40,482 nucleotides of DNA, from the sequence record MZ234011.1; one strand, given 5' to 3'. Both the position numbers and the translations under genes were made by a program. The notes beneath the pieces were generated by a model. The model was given only the letters and a program-made list of their open reading frames with translations. It was not told the DNA's origin and ran no database searches. This document shows, one piece after another, positions 6,541-36,098 of this stretch (position 1 is its first letter; every line of letters begins with the position of its first letter). Origin of the DNA: Escherichia phage vB_EcoP-22664UKE3-2.

Positions 6541-6586
6541 TTAGACTCAAGGTCATTACTATATGTAGTGGCCTTTATGGTTAACA
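6541..6586 (+). promoter_or_regulatory. Conserved RNA hairpin, family 2 (AGACTCAAGGTCAT...GTGGCCTTTATGGTTAAC); putative RNase III processing site before gene 18.5
   Basis: One of three copies of the same motif (also about 16553 and 23779); stem AAGGUCA/UGGCCUU requires a G-U pair so works only as RNA; position corresponds to T7 R18.5. Confidence 0.4.
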
Positions 6587-6638
6587 CTAACTAGTGGAGG
6601 AGACTCTACGTGAAATCCGATAAACCGGGAGGGCAACT

Positions 6639-9336: not shown

Positions 9337-9372
9337 CTACCAGTCTAACCTACTGTTTTACAAGGAGTTTGG

Positions 9373-9395
9373 ACTTAACTATCACTATAGGGAAG
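9373..9395 (+). promoter_or_regulatory. Phage RNAP promoter (CTTAACTATCACTATAGGGAAGA), phiOR-like position after gene 19
   Basis: Full match to the promoter core; position corresponds to T7 phiOR. Confidence 0.6.
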
Positions 9396-10547: not shown

Positions 10548-10660
10548 GTACCACATCAACACGAAACAACGGTGACGACCAACACTGAAACGGTCTACCT
10601 GAAGTCCTCTGACTGAAGGGAATGCTCTTTAACAATCTGGATAAACTCTTAATGTGCGCC

Positions 10661-10723
10661 GACAGTGATTAACTACAGGGTCTTTGAGTCTACATCTGAA
10701 GGCCCTGACTGATAGTCACTAAC
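10661..10723 (+). promoter_or_regulatory. Repeated hairpin element, family 1 copy A (putative RNase III site before first early gene)
   Basis: AGTGATTAACTACAGG...CCTGACTGATAGTCACTAAC; imperfect inverted repeat; nearly identical to copy D at 12156. Confidence 0.5.
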
Positions 10724-10985: not shown

Positions 10986-11040
10986 GAGTGATTAACTACA
11001 GGTCGTTAGACTGATAGCGGCCTGACTGATAGTCACTAGC
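10985..11040 (+). promoter_or_regulatory. Repeated hairpin element, family 1 copy B (putative RNase III site)
   Basis: Same outer arms as copy A with inner variant GTCGTTAGACTGATAGCGGCC; near-identical to copy C. Confidence 0.5.
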
Positions 11041-11058
11041 AACCTAAGAGGATTCATT

Positions 11059-11337
11059 ATGAGACTGAACAAAGCTACAGCAGAAGCCTTTCGCAAGGAG
11101 CTTGAATCAAGATTATTGTGTGGAGTGGCGGAAGGAGCCGCTCGATATAAAGAGAATGGTCTAACGTTCAAGCGCTTTATGTGGGATTGCTATCACGGAG
11201 TGGGCCATAAAAAGTCGCAGGAAATAATCACCAGCAACAATGCGGAAGTGCAAGTGATAGGAGGATACATGGCTAACGTGAAGGATTCACACATAGAGAC
11301 AATGCTTAAGAATGCACTTAAAGATGTAGCCTACTAG
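11059..11337 (+). CDS. Hypothetical early protein (92 aa)
   Basis: ORF with RBS AAGAGGA upstream; between hairpin copies B and C; no recognisable similarity. Confidence 0.6.
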   Translation: MRLNKATAEAFRKELESRLLCGVAEGAARYKENGLTFKRFMWDCYHGVGHKKSQEIITSNNAEVQVIGGYMANVKDSHIETMLKNALKDVAY

Positions 11338-11388
11338 TGATTAACTACAGGTCGTTAGACTGATAGCGGCCTGACTGATAGTCACTAA
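11333..11388 (+). promoter_or_regulatory. Repeated hairpin element, family 1 copy C (putative RNase III site before ocr)
   Basis: Near-identical to copy B. Confidence 0.5.
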
Positions 11389-11417
11389 CACATAATTAAC
11401 TTTGAGAGGATATAACT

Positions 11418-11924
11418 ATGGAACGTAATGCTAACGCATACTATGAGCTGCTGGCTGCAACCGTTGAGGCATTTATCGAGCGTATTCAGTACGACCACCT
11501 GACTCAAGATGATGACTACAGCGATGCGCTGCATGAGGTCGTAGACGGTCAGGTTCCACACTATTACCACGAGATTTTTACGGTGATGGCTGCTGATGGT
11601 ATAGACCACGAGTTCGAAGACTCTGGGCTGATGCCTGAAACCAAGGACGTAACGCGTATCCTACAAGCTCGCATCTATGAGGCGCTTTATAACGATGTGT
11701 CTAATAGCTTGGATGTAGTCTGGTTTGAGGATGAAGAGGCAGAAGAAGAGGATGAATATTGGGTAGTTGACGCTAAAACAGGCGCAATAATTGTGCAAGC
11801 TGTAGCTCTTGAGGTCGCTACTGCATGTACCAAGGTTAACTATGCGGCAGGTCGCCACCTGAAGGTGGAAGACATCAATGATAACGTAGTGTTCGACCCT
11901 GCGGCTGAGGACTGCGAGCGATGA
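11418..11924 (+). CDS. ocr: Ocr-like anti-restriction DNA-mimic protein (T7 gp0.3 homologue), 168 aa with C-terminal extension
   Basis: [43 protein letters not shown] matches T7 Ocr ([43 protein letters not shown]) as I recall it; highly acidic. Confidence 0.85.
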
Positions 11925-12091
11925 TAACTTACGGTTTATGCCAGCACCACGTCACCAACGCCCGACTTATGGTCAAGACCGGGCGGTTAACCCATGATGA
12001 GACTATGCGTCTCCTGAAGGTGGTCTACAAGCGCCGCAAGCGCATACACGACAGTTTGCACGCTGAGGATAACCAACAATGCTCCAGATAA
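11921..12091 (+). CDS. Small hypothetical early ORF (56 aa)
   Basis: ATG overlaps the ocr stop (ATGA); manual translation [56 protein letters not shown]. Confidence 0.3.
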
Positions 12092-12155
12092 CTTATAGCA
12101 GCGAACAAGCGTTCTACGACGGGTGCTACGAGATGATGAAGCGCGATACTTGCTA

Positions 12156-12220
12156 GCGACAGTGATTAACTACAGGGTCTTTGAGTCTACATCTGAAGGC
12201 CCTGACTGATAGCCACTAAC
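12156..12220 (+). promoter_or_regulatory. Repeated hairpin element, family 1 copy D (putative RNase III site)
   Basis: One mismatch relative to copy A over about 60 bp. Confidence 0.5.
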
Positions 12221-12236
12221 AACTGAGAGGACAGAT

Positions 12237-12464
12237 ATGAACACAATCACTGGTGCCATAGCCAAAGGTTTTCGAGCAATTTTCAGTGAATCGCAAGAAG
12301 TATGCACCAATCATAAATTCGTACTTTCTTGCGTAGTAGGGGACGAGTTTGACGGATTCGATAAACTGGTGGTTTGCGACCATTGTGGACAAGAGGCTAT
12401 CCAACGCTCAAACGGTAAATTTGAATTAATAGACGATAGCCTTACAGAAGGAGACGGCGAGTAA
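12237..12464 (+). CDS. Hypothetical early protein (75 aa) with Cys pairs (possible zinc ribbon)
   Basis: RBS GAGAGGA upstream; two Cys pairs including CDHC. Confidence 0.5.
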   Translation: MNTITGAIAKGFRAIFSESQEVCTNHKFVLSCVVGDEFDGFDKLVVCDHCGQEAIQRSNGKFELIDDSLTEGDGE

Positions 12465-12596
12465 CCTAGATAAACAGGAGAGAACCAAATCGTAGCTTGA
12501 CCATAACGCTGACAGGTGGATACTGAGTGATAGACGAGAGGCCGTCGAATGATAGGTGGCCTCAAAGATTATCACTTGAATTAATAGGAGTTAACT

Positions 12597-12686
12597 ATGA
12601 GTGTGGGATATTGGGTCTGCCTAGCGCCAGTTATCTGGATGATAGGCTATGGGTTATACGACTGTATTAAACGGAAATCACTATGA
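12597..12686 (+). CDS. Small hydrophobic ORF (29 aa)
   Basis: RBS TAGGAG 6 nt upstream; MSVGYWVCLAPVIWMIGYGLYDCIKRKSL; N-terminus paralogous to the next ORF (IGYGL). Confidence 0.3.
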   Translation: MSVGYWVCLAPVIWMIGYGLYDCIKRKSL

Positions 12687-12880
12687 GTATTGCACTATTG
12701 ATAGCCATAGGCTATGGACTTATCGCATACGTGCTGGTGAGAGACATCAACAAGGCACGTAAAGTCTATAAATTCAACTATGTACGTATGGTCCGCTGGA
12801 CTGTACGTCAACCTAACGGACGATTCCTGCGCAATTTAGCGAACGTCTGGGATATAGCAACTCTTGGGAGCAAACTGTAA
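12683..12880 (+). CDS. Small membrane protein (65 aa)
   Basis: Start overlaps the previous stop (ATGA); N-terminal hydrophobic segment LLIAIGYGLIAYVLV then basic tail. Confidence 0.45.
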   Translation: MSIALLIAIGYGLIAYVLVRDINKARKVYKFNYVRMVRWTVRQPNGRFLRNLANVWDIATLGSKL

Positions 12881-13206
12881 TGAACAAGTCATACGGGATT
12901 AATCTGGTACACTCTATGGACGCAGAAATGAACATGTTAAGCCTACTGGCTACCGGGTATCGTCACGGAACGTCAAGTCACACCGCACGTCAACAGCAGG
13001 AGAGGGACCGTGTACTACAGGCGCGACTCCGGGCAGAGGGCCATAAGTCCGAACTGATGTGTCTGGCGTATGGCGGACGACCGATCACTGACGATGGTAA
13101 ACTTCTGGTATCAGGCTGGAAGGCGATAGACCAACGGTCAACCATCAAGCACACGACTCACGGTGACTTCAGCCATCTCCACGCTAACCCACTGATATGC
13201 AAGTGA
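12880..13206 (+). CDS. Hypothetical early protein (108 aa)
   Basis: ORF in the early region immediately upstream of the RNAP gene; no recognisable similarity. Confidence 0.5.
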   Translation: MNKSYGINLVHSMDAEMNMLSLLATGYRHGTSSHTARQQQERDRVLQARLRAEGHKSELMCLAYGGRPITDDGKLLVSGWKAIDQRSTIKHTTHGDFSHLHANPLICK

Positions 13207-13211
13207 TTATG

Positions 13212-13234
13212 ACTTAACTATCACTATAGGACTC
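13212..13234 (+). promoter_or_regulatory. Phage RNAP promoter immediately upstream of the RNAP gene (CTTAACTATCACTATAGGACTC)
   Basis: Full promoter core 70 nt upstream of the gene 1 start. Confidence 0.6.
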
Positions 13235-13303
13235 AAGGTCTAAGACTCCAAGTGAAAGACCAAAGAGACTTTAAGTGAAAGACTAATAACAAGGACTTTA
13301 AGT

Positions 13304-16532: not shown

Positions 16533-16555
16533 CCTAAACTATCACTATAGGCTTA
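16533..16555 (+). promoter_or_regulatory. Phage RNAP promoter (CCTAAACTATCACTATAGGCTTA), phi1.1-like
   Basis: Full promoter core upstream of gene 1.1. Confidence 0.6.
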
Positions 16556-16598
16556 GACTCAAGGTCATGACTCAAAGTCGTGGCCTTCATGATTAACC
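16553..16598 (+). promoter_or_regulatory. Conserved RNA hairpin, family 2; putative RNase III site (R1.1-like)
   Basis: AGACTCAAGGTCAT...GTGGCCTTCATGATTAAC; same motif as at 6541 and 23779. Confidence 0.4.
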
Positions 16599-16628
16599 CT
16601 AAATAAACACTACTGGAGATTTAACCGT

Positions 16629-27392: not shown

Positions 27393-27491
27393 ACTGCATG
27401 TACAAGTGGTTCGGGTCGAACAACCGCCCTAAACACTGAGTCTAACCGATAGTCATATCCTATCAATCCAACAGTCATCCATAGGTGAAAT

Positions 27492-27514
27492 ACTAAACTA
27501 TCACTATAGGGACT
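27492..27514 (+). promoter_or_regulatory. Phage RNAP promoter (ACTAAACTATCACTATAGGGACT), phi6.5-like
   Basis: Full promoter core. Confidence 0.6.
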
Positions 27515-33693: not shown

Positions 33694-36051
33694 ATGCCAC
33701 TAATTACACAATCAATCAAGAACCTTAAAGGTGGCATTAGCCAACAGCCTGACATACTGAGGTTCTCAGACCAAGGCGAGGAGCAAGTTAACTGCTGGTC
33801 ATCAGAGAGTGATGGCCTCCAGAAGCGTCCACCTACAGTCTTCAAGCGACGTCTTAACATCGACGTTGGGAGCAACCCTAAGTTCCACCTGATTAACCGT
33901 GATGAGCAGGAGCAGTATTACATCGTGTTCAACGGGTCCAACATTCAGGTAGTTGACTTGAGTGGTAATCAATACTCAGTTTCCGGTGCGGTAGATTACG
34001 TTAAGTCGTCCAACCCGCGAGATGACATACGTGTCGTTACCGTTGCAGACTATACGTTCATCGTGAACCGTAAGGTTGTCGTTAAAGGTGGAAGCGAGAA
34101 GTCACACTCTGGTTATAATCGTAAAGCTCGTGCTTTAATTAACCTGCGTGGTGGACAGTATGGTCGCACCCTTAAGGTAGGAATCAACGGAGGCGTTAAG
34201 GTTTCGCATAAGCTGCCAGCAGGTAATGATGCCGAGAATGACCCACCTAAGGTGGATGCTCAGGCCATCGGTGCAGCTCTGAGAGACCTTCTTGTTGCTG
34301 CCTATCCTACCTTCACGTTCGACCTTGGGTCTGGCTTCCTGCTAATCACAGCTCCTTCAGGGACCGACATTAACTCAGTGGAGACTGAGGATGGATACGC
34401 TAACCAGCTAATCAGCCCAGTCCTCGACACGGTGCAAACAATCTCTAAGTTGCCTCTTGCGGCTCCAAATGGGTACATCATTAAGATTCAAGGTGAGACC
34501 AACAGTAGCGCCGATGAGTATTACGTGATGTATGACTCCAACACTAAGACGTGGAAGGAGACAGTAGAGCCGGGAGTGGTCACTGGGTTTGATAACACCA
34601 CAATGCCACATGCTCTGGTTAGACAATCTGACGGCTCCTTTGAGTTCAAGACTCTGGACTGGTCCAAGCGTGGTGCTGGTAATGATGACACAAACCCTAT
34701 GCCTAGCTTCGTGAATGCCACGATTAACGATGTGTTCTTCTACAGGAACAGGCTGGGGTTCTTGTCAGGTGAGAACGTAATCATGAGCCGTTCAGCCAGC
34801 TACTTTGCGTTCTTCCCTAAGAGTGTGGCGACACTGAGTGATGATGACCCTATTGATGTAGCTGTAAGTCACCCTCGAATCTCAATCCTTAAGTATGCCG
34901 TTCCGTTTAGCGAGCAGCTACTACTTTGGTCTGATGAGGTTCAGTTCGTGATGACAAGCTCTGGGGTGCTTACCTCGAAGTCTATCCAGCTTGATGTAGG
35001 CTCAGAGTTTGCCTTAGGAGATAATGCCAGACCGTTCGCTGTAGGACGCTCAGTCTTCTTCTCAGCGCCTCGTGGGTCATTCACCAGCATTAAGCGATAC
35101 TTCGCTGTAGCAGATGTGTCTGACGTGAAGGATGTCGATGATACCACTGGTCACGTACTGTCCTATATCCCTAACGGGGTGTTTGACATTCAAGGTACAG
35201 GGACTGAGAACTACATCTGCGTCAACTCTACAGGTGCATACAACCGAATCTACATCTATAAGTTCTTGTTTAAGGACGGCGTACAGCTTCAAGCCTCTTG
35301 GTCGCACTGGGAGTTCCCTAAAGCTGATAAGATTCTGGCGTCTGCTTCGATTGGCTCTACCATGTTCATTGTTCGTCAGCACCAAGGCGGCGCGGACCTT
35401 GAGCACCTTAAGTTTATCAAGGAGGCAACCGACTTTCCGTTAGAGCCATATAGACTCCACGTTGACTCCAAGGTGTCTATGGTAATACCAATTGGCTCAT
35501 ACAACGTTGACACCTATAAGACTACGGTTGACATTGGTTCTGCTTATGGTGGAAACGCTCCGTCTCCCGGTCGGTACTATCTTATTGACAGTCAGGGTGC
35601 CTACGTGGACCTTGGTGAATTGACAGACATCTCAACTGTGGCTATACTAAATGGCGATTGGTCAGGACGTACAGTGTTCATAGGACGGTCTTATCTGATG
35701 TCCTACAAGTTCTCACGGTTCCTGATTAAGATTGAAGACGATAGCGGCACTCAGTCTGAAGACACTGGTCGTCTACAACTTCGTCGGGCTTGGGTCAACT
35801 ACAAGGACACTGGCGCTCTTAGACTCATTGTCAGAAACGGTGAGCGGGAGTTCGTGAATACCTTTAATGGGTACACCCTTGGTCAGCAGACCATTGGGAC
35901 TACCAACATTGGTGACGGTCAGTATCGCTTCGCTATGAATGGTAACGCATTAACCACGAGTCTAACCTTAGAGTCAGATTATCCTACCCCAGTGTCCATC
36001 GTTGGCTGTGGCTGGGAGGCGTCATACGCTAAGAAAGCTCGTTCCGTCTAA
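33694..36051 (+). CDS. Tail tubular protein B (T7 gp12-like)
   Basis: ITQSIKNLKGGISQQPDILRFSDQG...LQKRPP...HLINRDEQEQYY...MPHALVR...SFVNATINDVFFYRNRLGFLSGENVIMSR...LQLRRAWVNYKDTG...GCGWE is co-linear with T7 gp12. Confidence 0.97.
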   Translation: MPLITQSIKNLKGGISQQPDILRFSDQGEEQVNCWSSESDGLQKRPPTVFKRRLNIDVGSNPKFHLINRDEQEQYYIVFNGSNIQVVDLSGNQYSVSGAVDYVKSSNPRDDIRVVTVADYTFIVNRKVVVKGGSEKSHSGYNRKARALINLRGGQYGRTLKVGINGGVKVSHKLPAGNDAENDPPKVDAQAIGAALRDLLVAAYPTFTFDLGSGFLLITAPSGTDINSVETEDGYANQLISPVLDTVQTISKLPLAAPNGYIIKIQGETNSSADEYYVMYDSNTKTWKETVEPGVVTGFDNTTMPHALVRQSDGSFEFKTLDWSKRGAGNDDTNPMPSFVNATINDVFFYRNRLGFLSGENVIMSRSASYFAFFPKSVATLSDDDPIDVAVSHPRISILKYAVPFSEQLLLWSDEVQFVMTSSGVLTSKSIQLDVGSEFALGDNARPFAVGRSVFFSAPRGSFTSIKRYFAVADVSDVKDVDDTTGHVLSYIPNGVFDIQGTGTENYICVNSTGAYNRIYIYKFLFKDGVQLQASWSHWEFPKADKILASASIGSTMFIVRQHQGGADLEHLKFIKEATDFPLEPYRLHVDSKVSMVIPIGSYNVDTYKTTVDIGSAYGGNAPSPGRYYLIDSQGAYVDLGELTDISTVAILNGDWSGRTVFIGRSYLMSYKFSRFLIKIEDDSGTQSEDTGRLQLRRAWVNYKDTGALRLIVRNGEREFVNTFNGYTLGQQTIGTTNIGDGQYRFAMNGNALTTSLTLESDYPTPVSIVGCGWEASYAKKARSV

Positions 36052-36075
36052 CTTATTGAAGGGCCTATAGATTTA

Positions 36076-36098
36076 CCTTAACTATCACTATAGGGACT
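36076..36098 (+). promoter_or_regulatory. Phage RNAP promoter (CCTTAACTATCACTATAGGGACT), phi13-like, nested inside an inverted repeat
   Basis: Full promoter core; flanked by AGGGCCTATAG (36060-36070) and CTATAGGCCCT (36097-36107). Confidence 0.6.

Follow-up and report, generated by a model that had tools for sequence, protein, structure and literature searches.

Ocr is the textbook DNA mimic and serves as the reference inhibitor of type I restriction-modification (R-M) and BREX systems and as the reference trigger of PARIS. To our knowledge, nearly all work on Ocr was done on the 117-aa protein of phage T7. A C-terminal Strep tag does not abolish the activity of T7 Ocr against EcoKI or BREX (Isaev et al. 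2020, PMC7261183). A spontaneous T7 deletion, arising by slippage between short repeats, fused residues 1–110 of Ocr to 121 residues of gp0.7; this 0.3-0.7 fusion kept full anti-EcoKI activity, performed about 10-fold worse against BREX and, upon passage on BREX+ cells, was cut short by selected stop codons where the appended part begins (PMC7261183). These data show that the Ocr C-terminus tolerates additions, that a bulky addition can shift the target profile and that costly additions are shed fast. T7 Ocr, like other small acidic proteins, sets off PARIS (PMC11464382), and this sensing of T7 Ocr makes a pressure to modify or disguise the protein plausible. Like the 0.3-0.7 fusion, the protein described here consists of Ocr and an extra C-terminal domain; the fusion, however, arose accidentally in the laboratory and carries an unrelated moiety of 121 aa, whereas the domain described here is natural and conserved.

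The analysed stretch of DNA, hereafter the window, comprises 40,482 nt of Escherichia phage vB_EcoP-22664UKE3-2 (MZ234011.1; Autographiviridae, Studiervirinae, Kayfunavirus). The window apparently represents a complete, circularly permuted Kayfunavirus genome, as its terminase gene ends ahead of the early region. Positions 11418–11924 of the plus strand form one open reading frame (ORF) of 168 aa, the translation of which is identical to the sequence quoted in the preliminary description, and the opposite strand of this interval has no ORF longer than 74 aa. The gene is 100% identical in six GenBank Escherichia phages, including vB_EcoP-101120B1-2 and PM129, and is labelled 'protein Ocr' in these. 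Public records often mis-annotate the Ocr gene, as 'protein kinase', 'Phage protein kinase', 'similar to N4-like RNA polymerase' or 'NinH protein'.

As read from the annotation of phage MZ234022 (identical) and of K1F, the Ocr gene is located in the early region, with the terminase gene and small ORFs upstream and a few small genes followed by the RNA polymerase gene downstream; metagenomic loci show the same context. The start codon is preceded by the Shine-Dalgarno-like motif GAGAGGA (11404–11410, plus strand; read from the sequence), which ends 7 nt 5' of the ATG. Directly 5' of the gene lies a 55-nt repeated hairpin (11336–11390, plus strand), one of three copies of direct-repeat family D2, which folds with an internal loop between two stems (−24.5 kcal/mol, z = −4.8) and is probably, by analogy with T7 R0.3, an RNase III-type processing site of the early transcript. 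Repeats of 55–64 nt from two families are found between the early genes (10660–10723, 10987–11041, 11336–11390, 12157–12220, and 12526–12580). Their folding is strong (−23 to −25 kcal/mol, z −3.4 to −4.8) and gives two-stem hairpins with an internal loop, and both families probably mark RNase III processing sites, as in T7. On the 3' side, a gp0.4-like gene of 56 aa (11921–12091, plus strand; identified in the ORF list, PHROG 5058, and PF26807 Phage_T7_GP04 in related loci) overlaps the Ocr stop codon with its ATG (ATGA) and is therefore probably translationally coupled to Ocr. A gp0.7-type protein kinase is absent between the Ocr and RNA polymerase genes of the window (11924–13300; context in locus L001) and K1F. 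In the window and K1F this interval contains only small ORFs of 30–108 aa, and the missing kinase indicates that Kayfunaviruses do without the broad kinase counter-defence of T7. Elsewhere in the window, four copies of a repeat that each end in TTAACTATCACTATAGG (9340–9391, 13179–13230, 27459–27510, and 36043–36094) resemble promoters used by the RNA polymerase that the phage itself encodes, and a 53-nt direct repeat with 83% identity (TTAGACTCAAGGTCAT…GGCCTT…; 6541–6593 and 16553–16605, 10 kb apart) has an inverted-repeat-like core.

Codons 1–103 (11418–11726, plus strand) constitute the Ocr core, the DNA-mimic domain, as identified by Pfam, PDB, and PHROG matches. Residues 8–95 match the Pfam family 'ocr' PF08684 (104.9 bits at a cut-off of 25 bits, E = 3.5e-30), residues 11–113 align with T7 Ocr (117 aa; PDB 1s7z and seven more entries; E = 1e-25), and the whole protein matches PHROG 2568 'ocr-like anti-restriction' (E = 4e-54). 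Identity to T7 Ocr is 53% over 106 positions of the local alignment, a 41-letter motif stretch is conserved between the two proteins, and 25 of the 33 acidic positions of T7 Ocr are also acidic in the window protein, counted as positions in the alignment. Both proteins have a pI of about 4 and are encoded among the first early genes of T7-like genomes. The core has a D+E content of 21% and a pI of 4.16, and the full protein carries a net charge of −30. AlphaFold2 (AF2) modelling of the monomer placed core helices at residues 7–26, 35–59, and 75–95, with pLDDT <50 at residues 59–73; the last helix (75–95) is predicted to be shorter than in T7 Ocr and is followed by the conserved 'DVVWFE' segment. 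The median dN/dS of the core is 0.11. These matches bear out the earlier assignment of the N-terminal ~110 aa to the Ocr family, and we conclude with high confidence that the gene encodes a genuine DNA mimic of the Ocr family. Residues 1–103 are expected, by homology with T7 Ocr, to form a dimer that sits in the DNA-binding clefts of type I R-M enzymes and of the BREX methyltransferase and would shield the unmodified phage genome once the early region is expressed; dimerisation and anti-restriction activity of the window protein are thus predictions from sequence.

T7 Ocr stops at 117 aa, after its acidic tail, whereas in the window protein the equivalent of this tail is a linker to a further module, which is followed by an 'EDCE' tail. 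The poly-acidic linker (codons 104–113, 11727–11756, plus strand) has nine acidic residues out of ten and aligns with the acidic tail of T7 Ocr, so that residues 114–168 (55 aa) are truly extra. This agrees with the preliminary description, which had reported ~55 additional C-terminal residues (168 aa versus 117 aa in T7). The linker leads to an accessory C-terminal module (codons 114–162, 11757–11903, plus strand; YWVVDAKTG...VVFDPA) of ~49 aa with a predicted beta-beta-alpha-beta-beta arrangement, and the ORF closes with the acidic tail AEDCER and the stop codon (11904–11924, plus strand). 'EDCE' is common to the short Ocr forms of the same lineage; in long forms the tail is short, acidic, and usually ends in EEDCE. 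In the DNA alignment the module sits exactly between linker and acidic tail. Among homologues, the linker ranges from about 4 (P0101) to about 21 (P0094) residues owing to in-frame indels, and it has the highest column entropy (0.91), a dN/dS of about 0.4–0.5, and lowered AF2 confidence; we infer that the tether is flexible. A search of 5.8 billion proteins yielded 502 matches, of which the best 120 clusters are all 162–179 aa long and share the reading frame of the window protein; the differences among them are in-frame linker indels and numerous substitutions within the extension. Precomputed Pfam annotations, based on a release recent enough to contain PF26807, assigned PF08684 alone to the normal long forms and PF26807 only to the deletion-fusion variant P0099. 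An origin of the extension as a fused gp0.4 was considered and rejected, as the gp0.4-like gene is a separate ORF (11921–12091).

Modelled alone from an alignment of 36 sequences, the module gave a compact AF2 prediction (pLDDT 91.9, pTM 0.76) with strands at module residues 3–7, 13–18, 37–40, and 46–48, a helix at 20–32, and a short terminal helix. In the full-length monomer its elements retained a pLDDT of about 90, the linker was less confident, and the overall pTM was 0.51; these summary confidence values suggest two units without fixed mutual orientation. Across 120 long forms, the hydrophobic core (W115, V116, I125, L131, A134, Y142, V150, V157, V158, and F159) and turn residues (D118, T121, G122, G145, H147, E151, D152, N154, D155, D160, and P161) are invariant or nearly so, and the variable positions are on the outer faces of the helix and strand 2. 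The dN/dS of the module, as was calculated by the Nei-Gojobori method from ten codon-aligned genes (the window, K1F, three IMG/VR loci, four metagenomic loci, and PZL-Ah1), has a median of 0.25 (range 0.10–0.66), and in the same pairs its dN is 2–4 times that of the core. Purifying selection acts on the module, which changes more quickly than the mimic core. Its net charge amounts to −2 in the window and −9 in K1F and PZL-Ah1, these values being the limits of the range among homologues. We have high confidence in the resulting anatomy, i.e., a tethered, independently folded accessory module on Ocr.

No match to the module was found in Pfam, PHROGs, NCBIfam, PADLOC or PDB sequences, and no paralogue is encoded elsewhere in the window or in 80 related loci. 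A full HMMER profile scan of 1.84 billion representatives (50% identity) returned just two repeat-protein false positives, at a bit-score threshold that is high for a 50-aa domain and would miss remote relatives. Combined k-mer and HMMER searches with the single module sequence and with a 25-sequence profile that included the PZL type recovered only split-gene fragments (P0121 and P0122); as they missed known long Ocr proteins and their candidate step seems length-biased, the absence of other module fusions is weak evidence. In fold comparisons the top matches, all weak, were the ClpS adaptor, T4 Dmd, and AcrIF9, the latter two being small phage inhibitors. Foldseek of the module against the PDB produced nothing significant, and a fold search in BFVD retrieved small uncharacterised phage proteins only (E ≥ 0.02). 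A ClpS-like adaptor was rejected (hhalign probability 0.3%, with the ClpS fold covered in part only). ClpS and the C-terminal domain of ribosomal protein L7/L12, T4 Dmd, and AcrIF9 share a generic small alpha/beta likeness with the module that has no counterpart in sequence profiles and that we do not regard as homology. We treat the module as a small alpha/beta orphan; domains of this kind are frequent in inhibitors that phages encode, a resemblance that we use as a lead only.

The same architecture is found in phage K1F, the type phage of Kayfunavirus, sequenced in 2005. K1F gp0.3 (YP_424911.1, 169 aa) equals the window protein in three-part organisation and genomic position, and the extension is therefore not peculiar to the window phage. 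The cores of the two proteins are nearly identical and the module dN is only about 0.22; the differences consist of substitutions, mainly in the module helix and strand 2, and of linker composition, with module charges of −9 in K1F and −2 in the window. At least 80% of the window gene is covered by 71 GenBank phage records. By tblastn, T7 Ocr detected Ocr in 571 phage records, and the module sequence detected the module in 71; in all 60 of the latter listed in detail, it is located at the Ocr gene of a Kayfunavirus-like phage. The extension is consequently present in 71 of the 571 Ocr-carrying records and absent from about 88%. Similarly, only 4 of 66 IMG/VR Ocr loci contain the module; the other 62 encode proteins that end with the acidic run and, with two exceptions, are 108–123 aa long. 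The earlier concern that such an extension might be common and functionally neutral in characterised Ocr homologues is not borne out, as the searchable literature yielded no characterised homologue with this extension.

Short Ocr proteins are known from, e.g., phages K1E (118 aa) and KP32 (115 aa). In the short proteins of Kayfunavirus and Przondovirus phages (Ro103C3lw, 110 aa; Bas105, 114 aa; KP32, 115 aa) the module is wholly absent, but they occupy the same locus and have the core subtype of the window protein, i.e., …NDVSNSSDVVWFE followed by the acidic run and a DCE or DCDD tail. A divergent module (WYVINDEESGPHVVAYYDSLEAAIEAANERYNTLGKLCHVEDDTSSEVLYNPV), with about 25% identity to that of the window next to a core identity of about 85%, is encoded by Aeromonas phage PZL-Ah1 and locus L048. 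The Ocr-like protein of PZL-Ah1 (QMP81610.1, 170 aa) has the architecture of the window protein, and its module aligns position for position with the window module (W-V-I, G, VV, LEAAI, Y, G, VED, and V-LYNP). These divergent versions indicate that the module is older and more variable than the K1F group alone would suggest. In PZL-Ah1 (L010, 1–1446), a T3-type SAM hydrolase, the long Ocr with the divergent module, and a gp0.7-type kinase are encoded side by side, a trio of adjacent early genes for host takeover or anti-defence.

Several naturally occurring variants clearly derive from long forms. In three loci of related phages (L002–L004; L002, 2667–3180), the GGG run at the start of the module (window position 11761–11763, plus strand) reads GGGG, and this +1 frameshift yields a 117-aa Ocr and an overlapping ORF of 59 aa. 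The three loci come from three runs of one study (Logan SRR33193082-84), and GGGG may be a real variant or a homopolymer error. The length of the truncated protein equals that of T7 Ocr by coincidence. In P0099, the module runs to '...GRHLK' and then, owing to a deletion, continues into the end of the gp0.4-like gene downstream. Escherichia phage vB_EcoP_IMEP24 (L005, 1162–1722) encodes a 186-aa Ocr in which the module is broken after '...PLKDAIA' and its second half is replaced by unrelated sequence (…YHLAGKDFKSKDEAIRYAVELAGG…); no gp0.4-like gene follows downstream. The 127-aa Ocr of STP-SP8 retains a relic of the module composed of the last strand and the tail ('...SVVFDHAAAEDCE'), a stretch that is close to the long forms in its DNA sequence and was detected with the module HMM (hmmsearch E = 6e-4).

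Short and long Kayfunavirus Ocr genes differ at the DNA level by one clean in-frame gap that is flanked by GAGGA microhomology and has its ends in the repetitive acidic codons beside the module (GAAGAGGA / GAGGAGGA). The short forms end in …VVWFEAEEDCE (Ro103C3lw), …EAEESDEEACE (Bas105), and other variants including …EDCDD. In a neighbour-joining tree built from the 103-aa cores, which has low resolution, long forms are scattered among short ones. For the simplest short forms, deletion is a more economical explanation than insertion. The module is dispensable and was repeatedly lost, and its patchy distribution is shaped at least partly by loss. The shedding of the gp0.7 appendage in T7 closely parallels the natural frameshift and deletions of the module. 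Early-gene content showed no consistent difference between long- and short-form phages and no candidate partner or substitute of the module in the small sample compared. Another C-terminal fusion is present in IMG/VR locus L061 (UViG_638277131), where the acidic tail of a 140-aa T7-type Ocr is replaced by other sequence, reminiscent of the laboratory 0.3-0.7 deletion mutants.

We propose that K1F-like (Kayfunavirus) phages make a two-part early protein that combines the Ocr mimic with a tethered module. The module would act as an accessory protein-binding head that hangs from the mimic on the poly-acidic linker, followed by the short tail that usually ends in 'DCE', and would provide another point of contact, be it to an additional host or defence target or to part of what Ocr itself targets. 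The earlier suggestion that a C-terminal extension could alter the target range of Ocr has an experimental precedent in the T7 0.3-0.7 fusion (PMC7261183). A benefit that depends on the host would explain why selection keeps the module in many phages and removes it in others. That the module mediates an additional protein contact of host-dependent value is inferred with moderate confidence, and the explanation as a whole, i.e., a bona fide Ocr with a tethered accessory module and a host-dependent extra contact, appears to us somewhat more probable than improbable. The frequent loss would also fit a module that is only weakly or conditionally useful. A more specific version, which we regard as tentative, is a two-headed anti-defence protein whose Ocr rod inhibits type I R-M and BREX and whose module neutralises or evades a different host system, for example a PARIS-type sensor of Ocr-like acidic proteins or another enterobacterial defence. 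If so, the polymorphism in module presence would mark a trade-off between hosts with different defence repertoires.

The module might instead act on Ocr itself, by hiding the mimic from sensors such as PARIS, by altering stability or turnover, or by linking dimers end to end. The triggering of PARIS by Ocr, which implies pressure for disguise (PMC11464382), is in line with such a role, as are the measurable effects of C-terminal appendages on performance against BREX but not EcoKI (PMC7261183), the faster evolution of the module compared to the core, which is expected from an arms race, and the identity of the best weak fold matches (ClpS adaptor, T4 Dmd, and AcrIF9). However, the likeness to ClpS is partial and found no backing from hhalign (probability 0.3%) or Foldseek against the PDB (not significant), and a long flexible tether makes a poor steric shield. 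We consider an action on Ocr possible but rather unlikely.

Less probable still is that the module is a near-neutral passenger, the relic of an old fusion or insertion, kept by linkage while slowly disappearing. Loss is indeed frequent and occurred by many routes, phages with the short form are viable isolates (Bas105 and Ro103C3lw), and the searches made detected no relative or function of the module. On the other hand, its dN/dS is well below 1 (0.10–0.16 in the lowest pairs with estimable dS), the hydrophobic core and turn motifs are kept in about 120 clusters, and the fold pattern is preserved in PZL-Ah1 at about 25% identity. The model is moreover compact and confident, and a neutral tail of 50 codons would not last long in a lytic phage of 40 kb.

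The preliminary description had suggested an extended DNA mimic. In such a protein the extension would lengthen the DNA-like surface and cover a longer footprint. Linker and tail are strongly acidic and the K1F and PZL modules have a net charge of −9, but the window module has only −2, and a charge that varies between −2 and −9 is not conserved, which argues against the module being simply further DNA mimic. The extension is predicted to form a separate globular alpha/beta unit on an acidic tether and no helical rod with phosphate-like spacing, and the linker is variable in length and has lower AF2 confidence. A longer mimic is accordingly very improbable, and the earlier wording should be replaced by that of a separate module. 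Finally, an artefact, i.e., the sequencing frameshift envisaged earlier or an erroneous joining of Ocr and the next gene during assembly, can be dismissed with near certainty because, even if frameshifts or fusions do occur at the Ocr locus of some relatives, 71 independent GenBank records, K1F, and at least 120 divergent clusters keep the frame with in-frame indels only, and the gp0.4-like next gene is present as a separate ORF.

The gene family and its architecture are already known from databases, where the K1F form has been present since 2005 and is annotated as Ocr or, often, incorrectly. We found no discussion or functional study of the Kayfunavirus Ocr extension, including that of K1F, in the searchable literature, the 2005 K1F genome paper lying outside this scope. 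New are the recognition of the extension as a discrete, selected orphan domain, its patchy distribution, and its divergent homologue in Aeromonas phages. Should the module prove neutral, the finding would amount to an annotation detail. The natural pairs of long and short forms and the laboratory tractability of K1F make the role of the module directly testable. A large group of therapeutic-candidate coliphages (K1F, LM33_P1, CLB_P1, and many more) encodes a long Ocr with this extra, apparently unexamined domain. If the module adds a target or re-tunes the specificity of Ocr, host-range prediction for long-form phages would be affected, and the long Ocr proteins would represent a natural case of modular anti-defence proteins.
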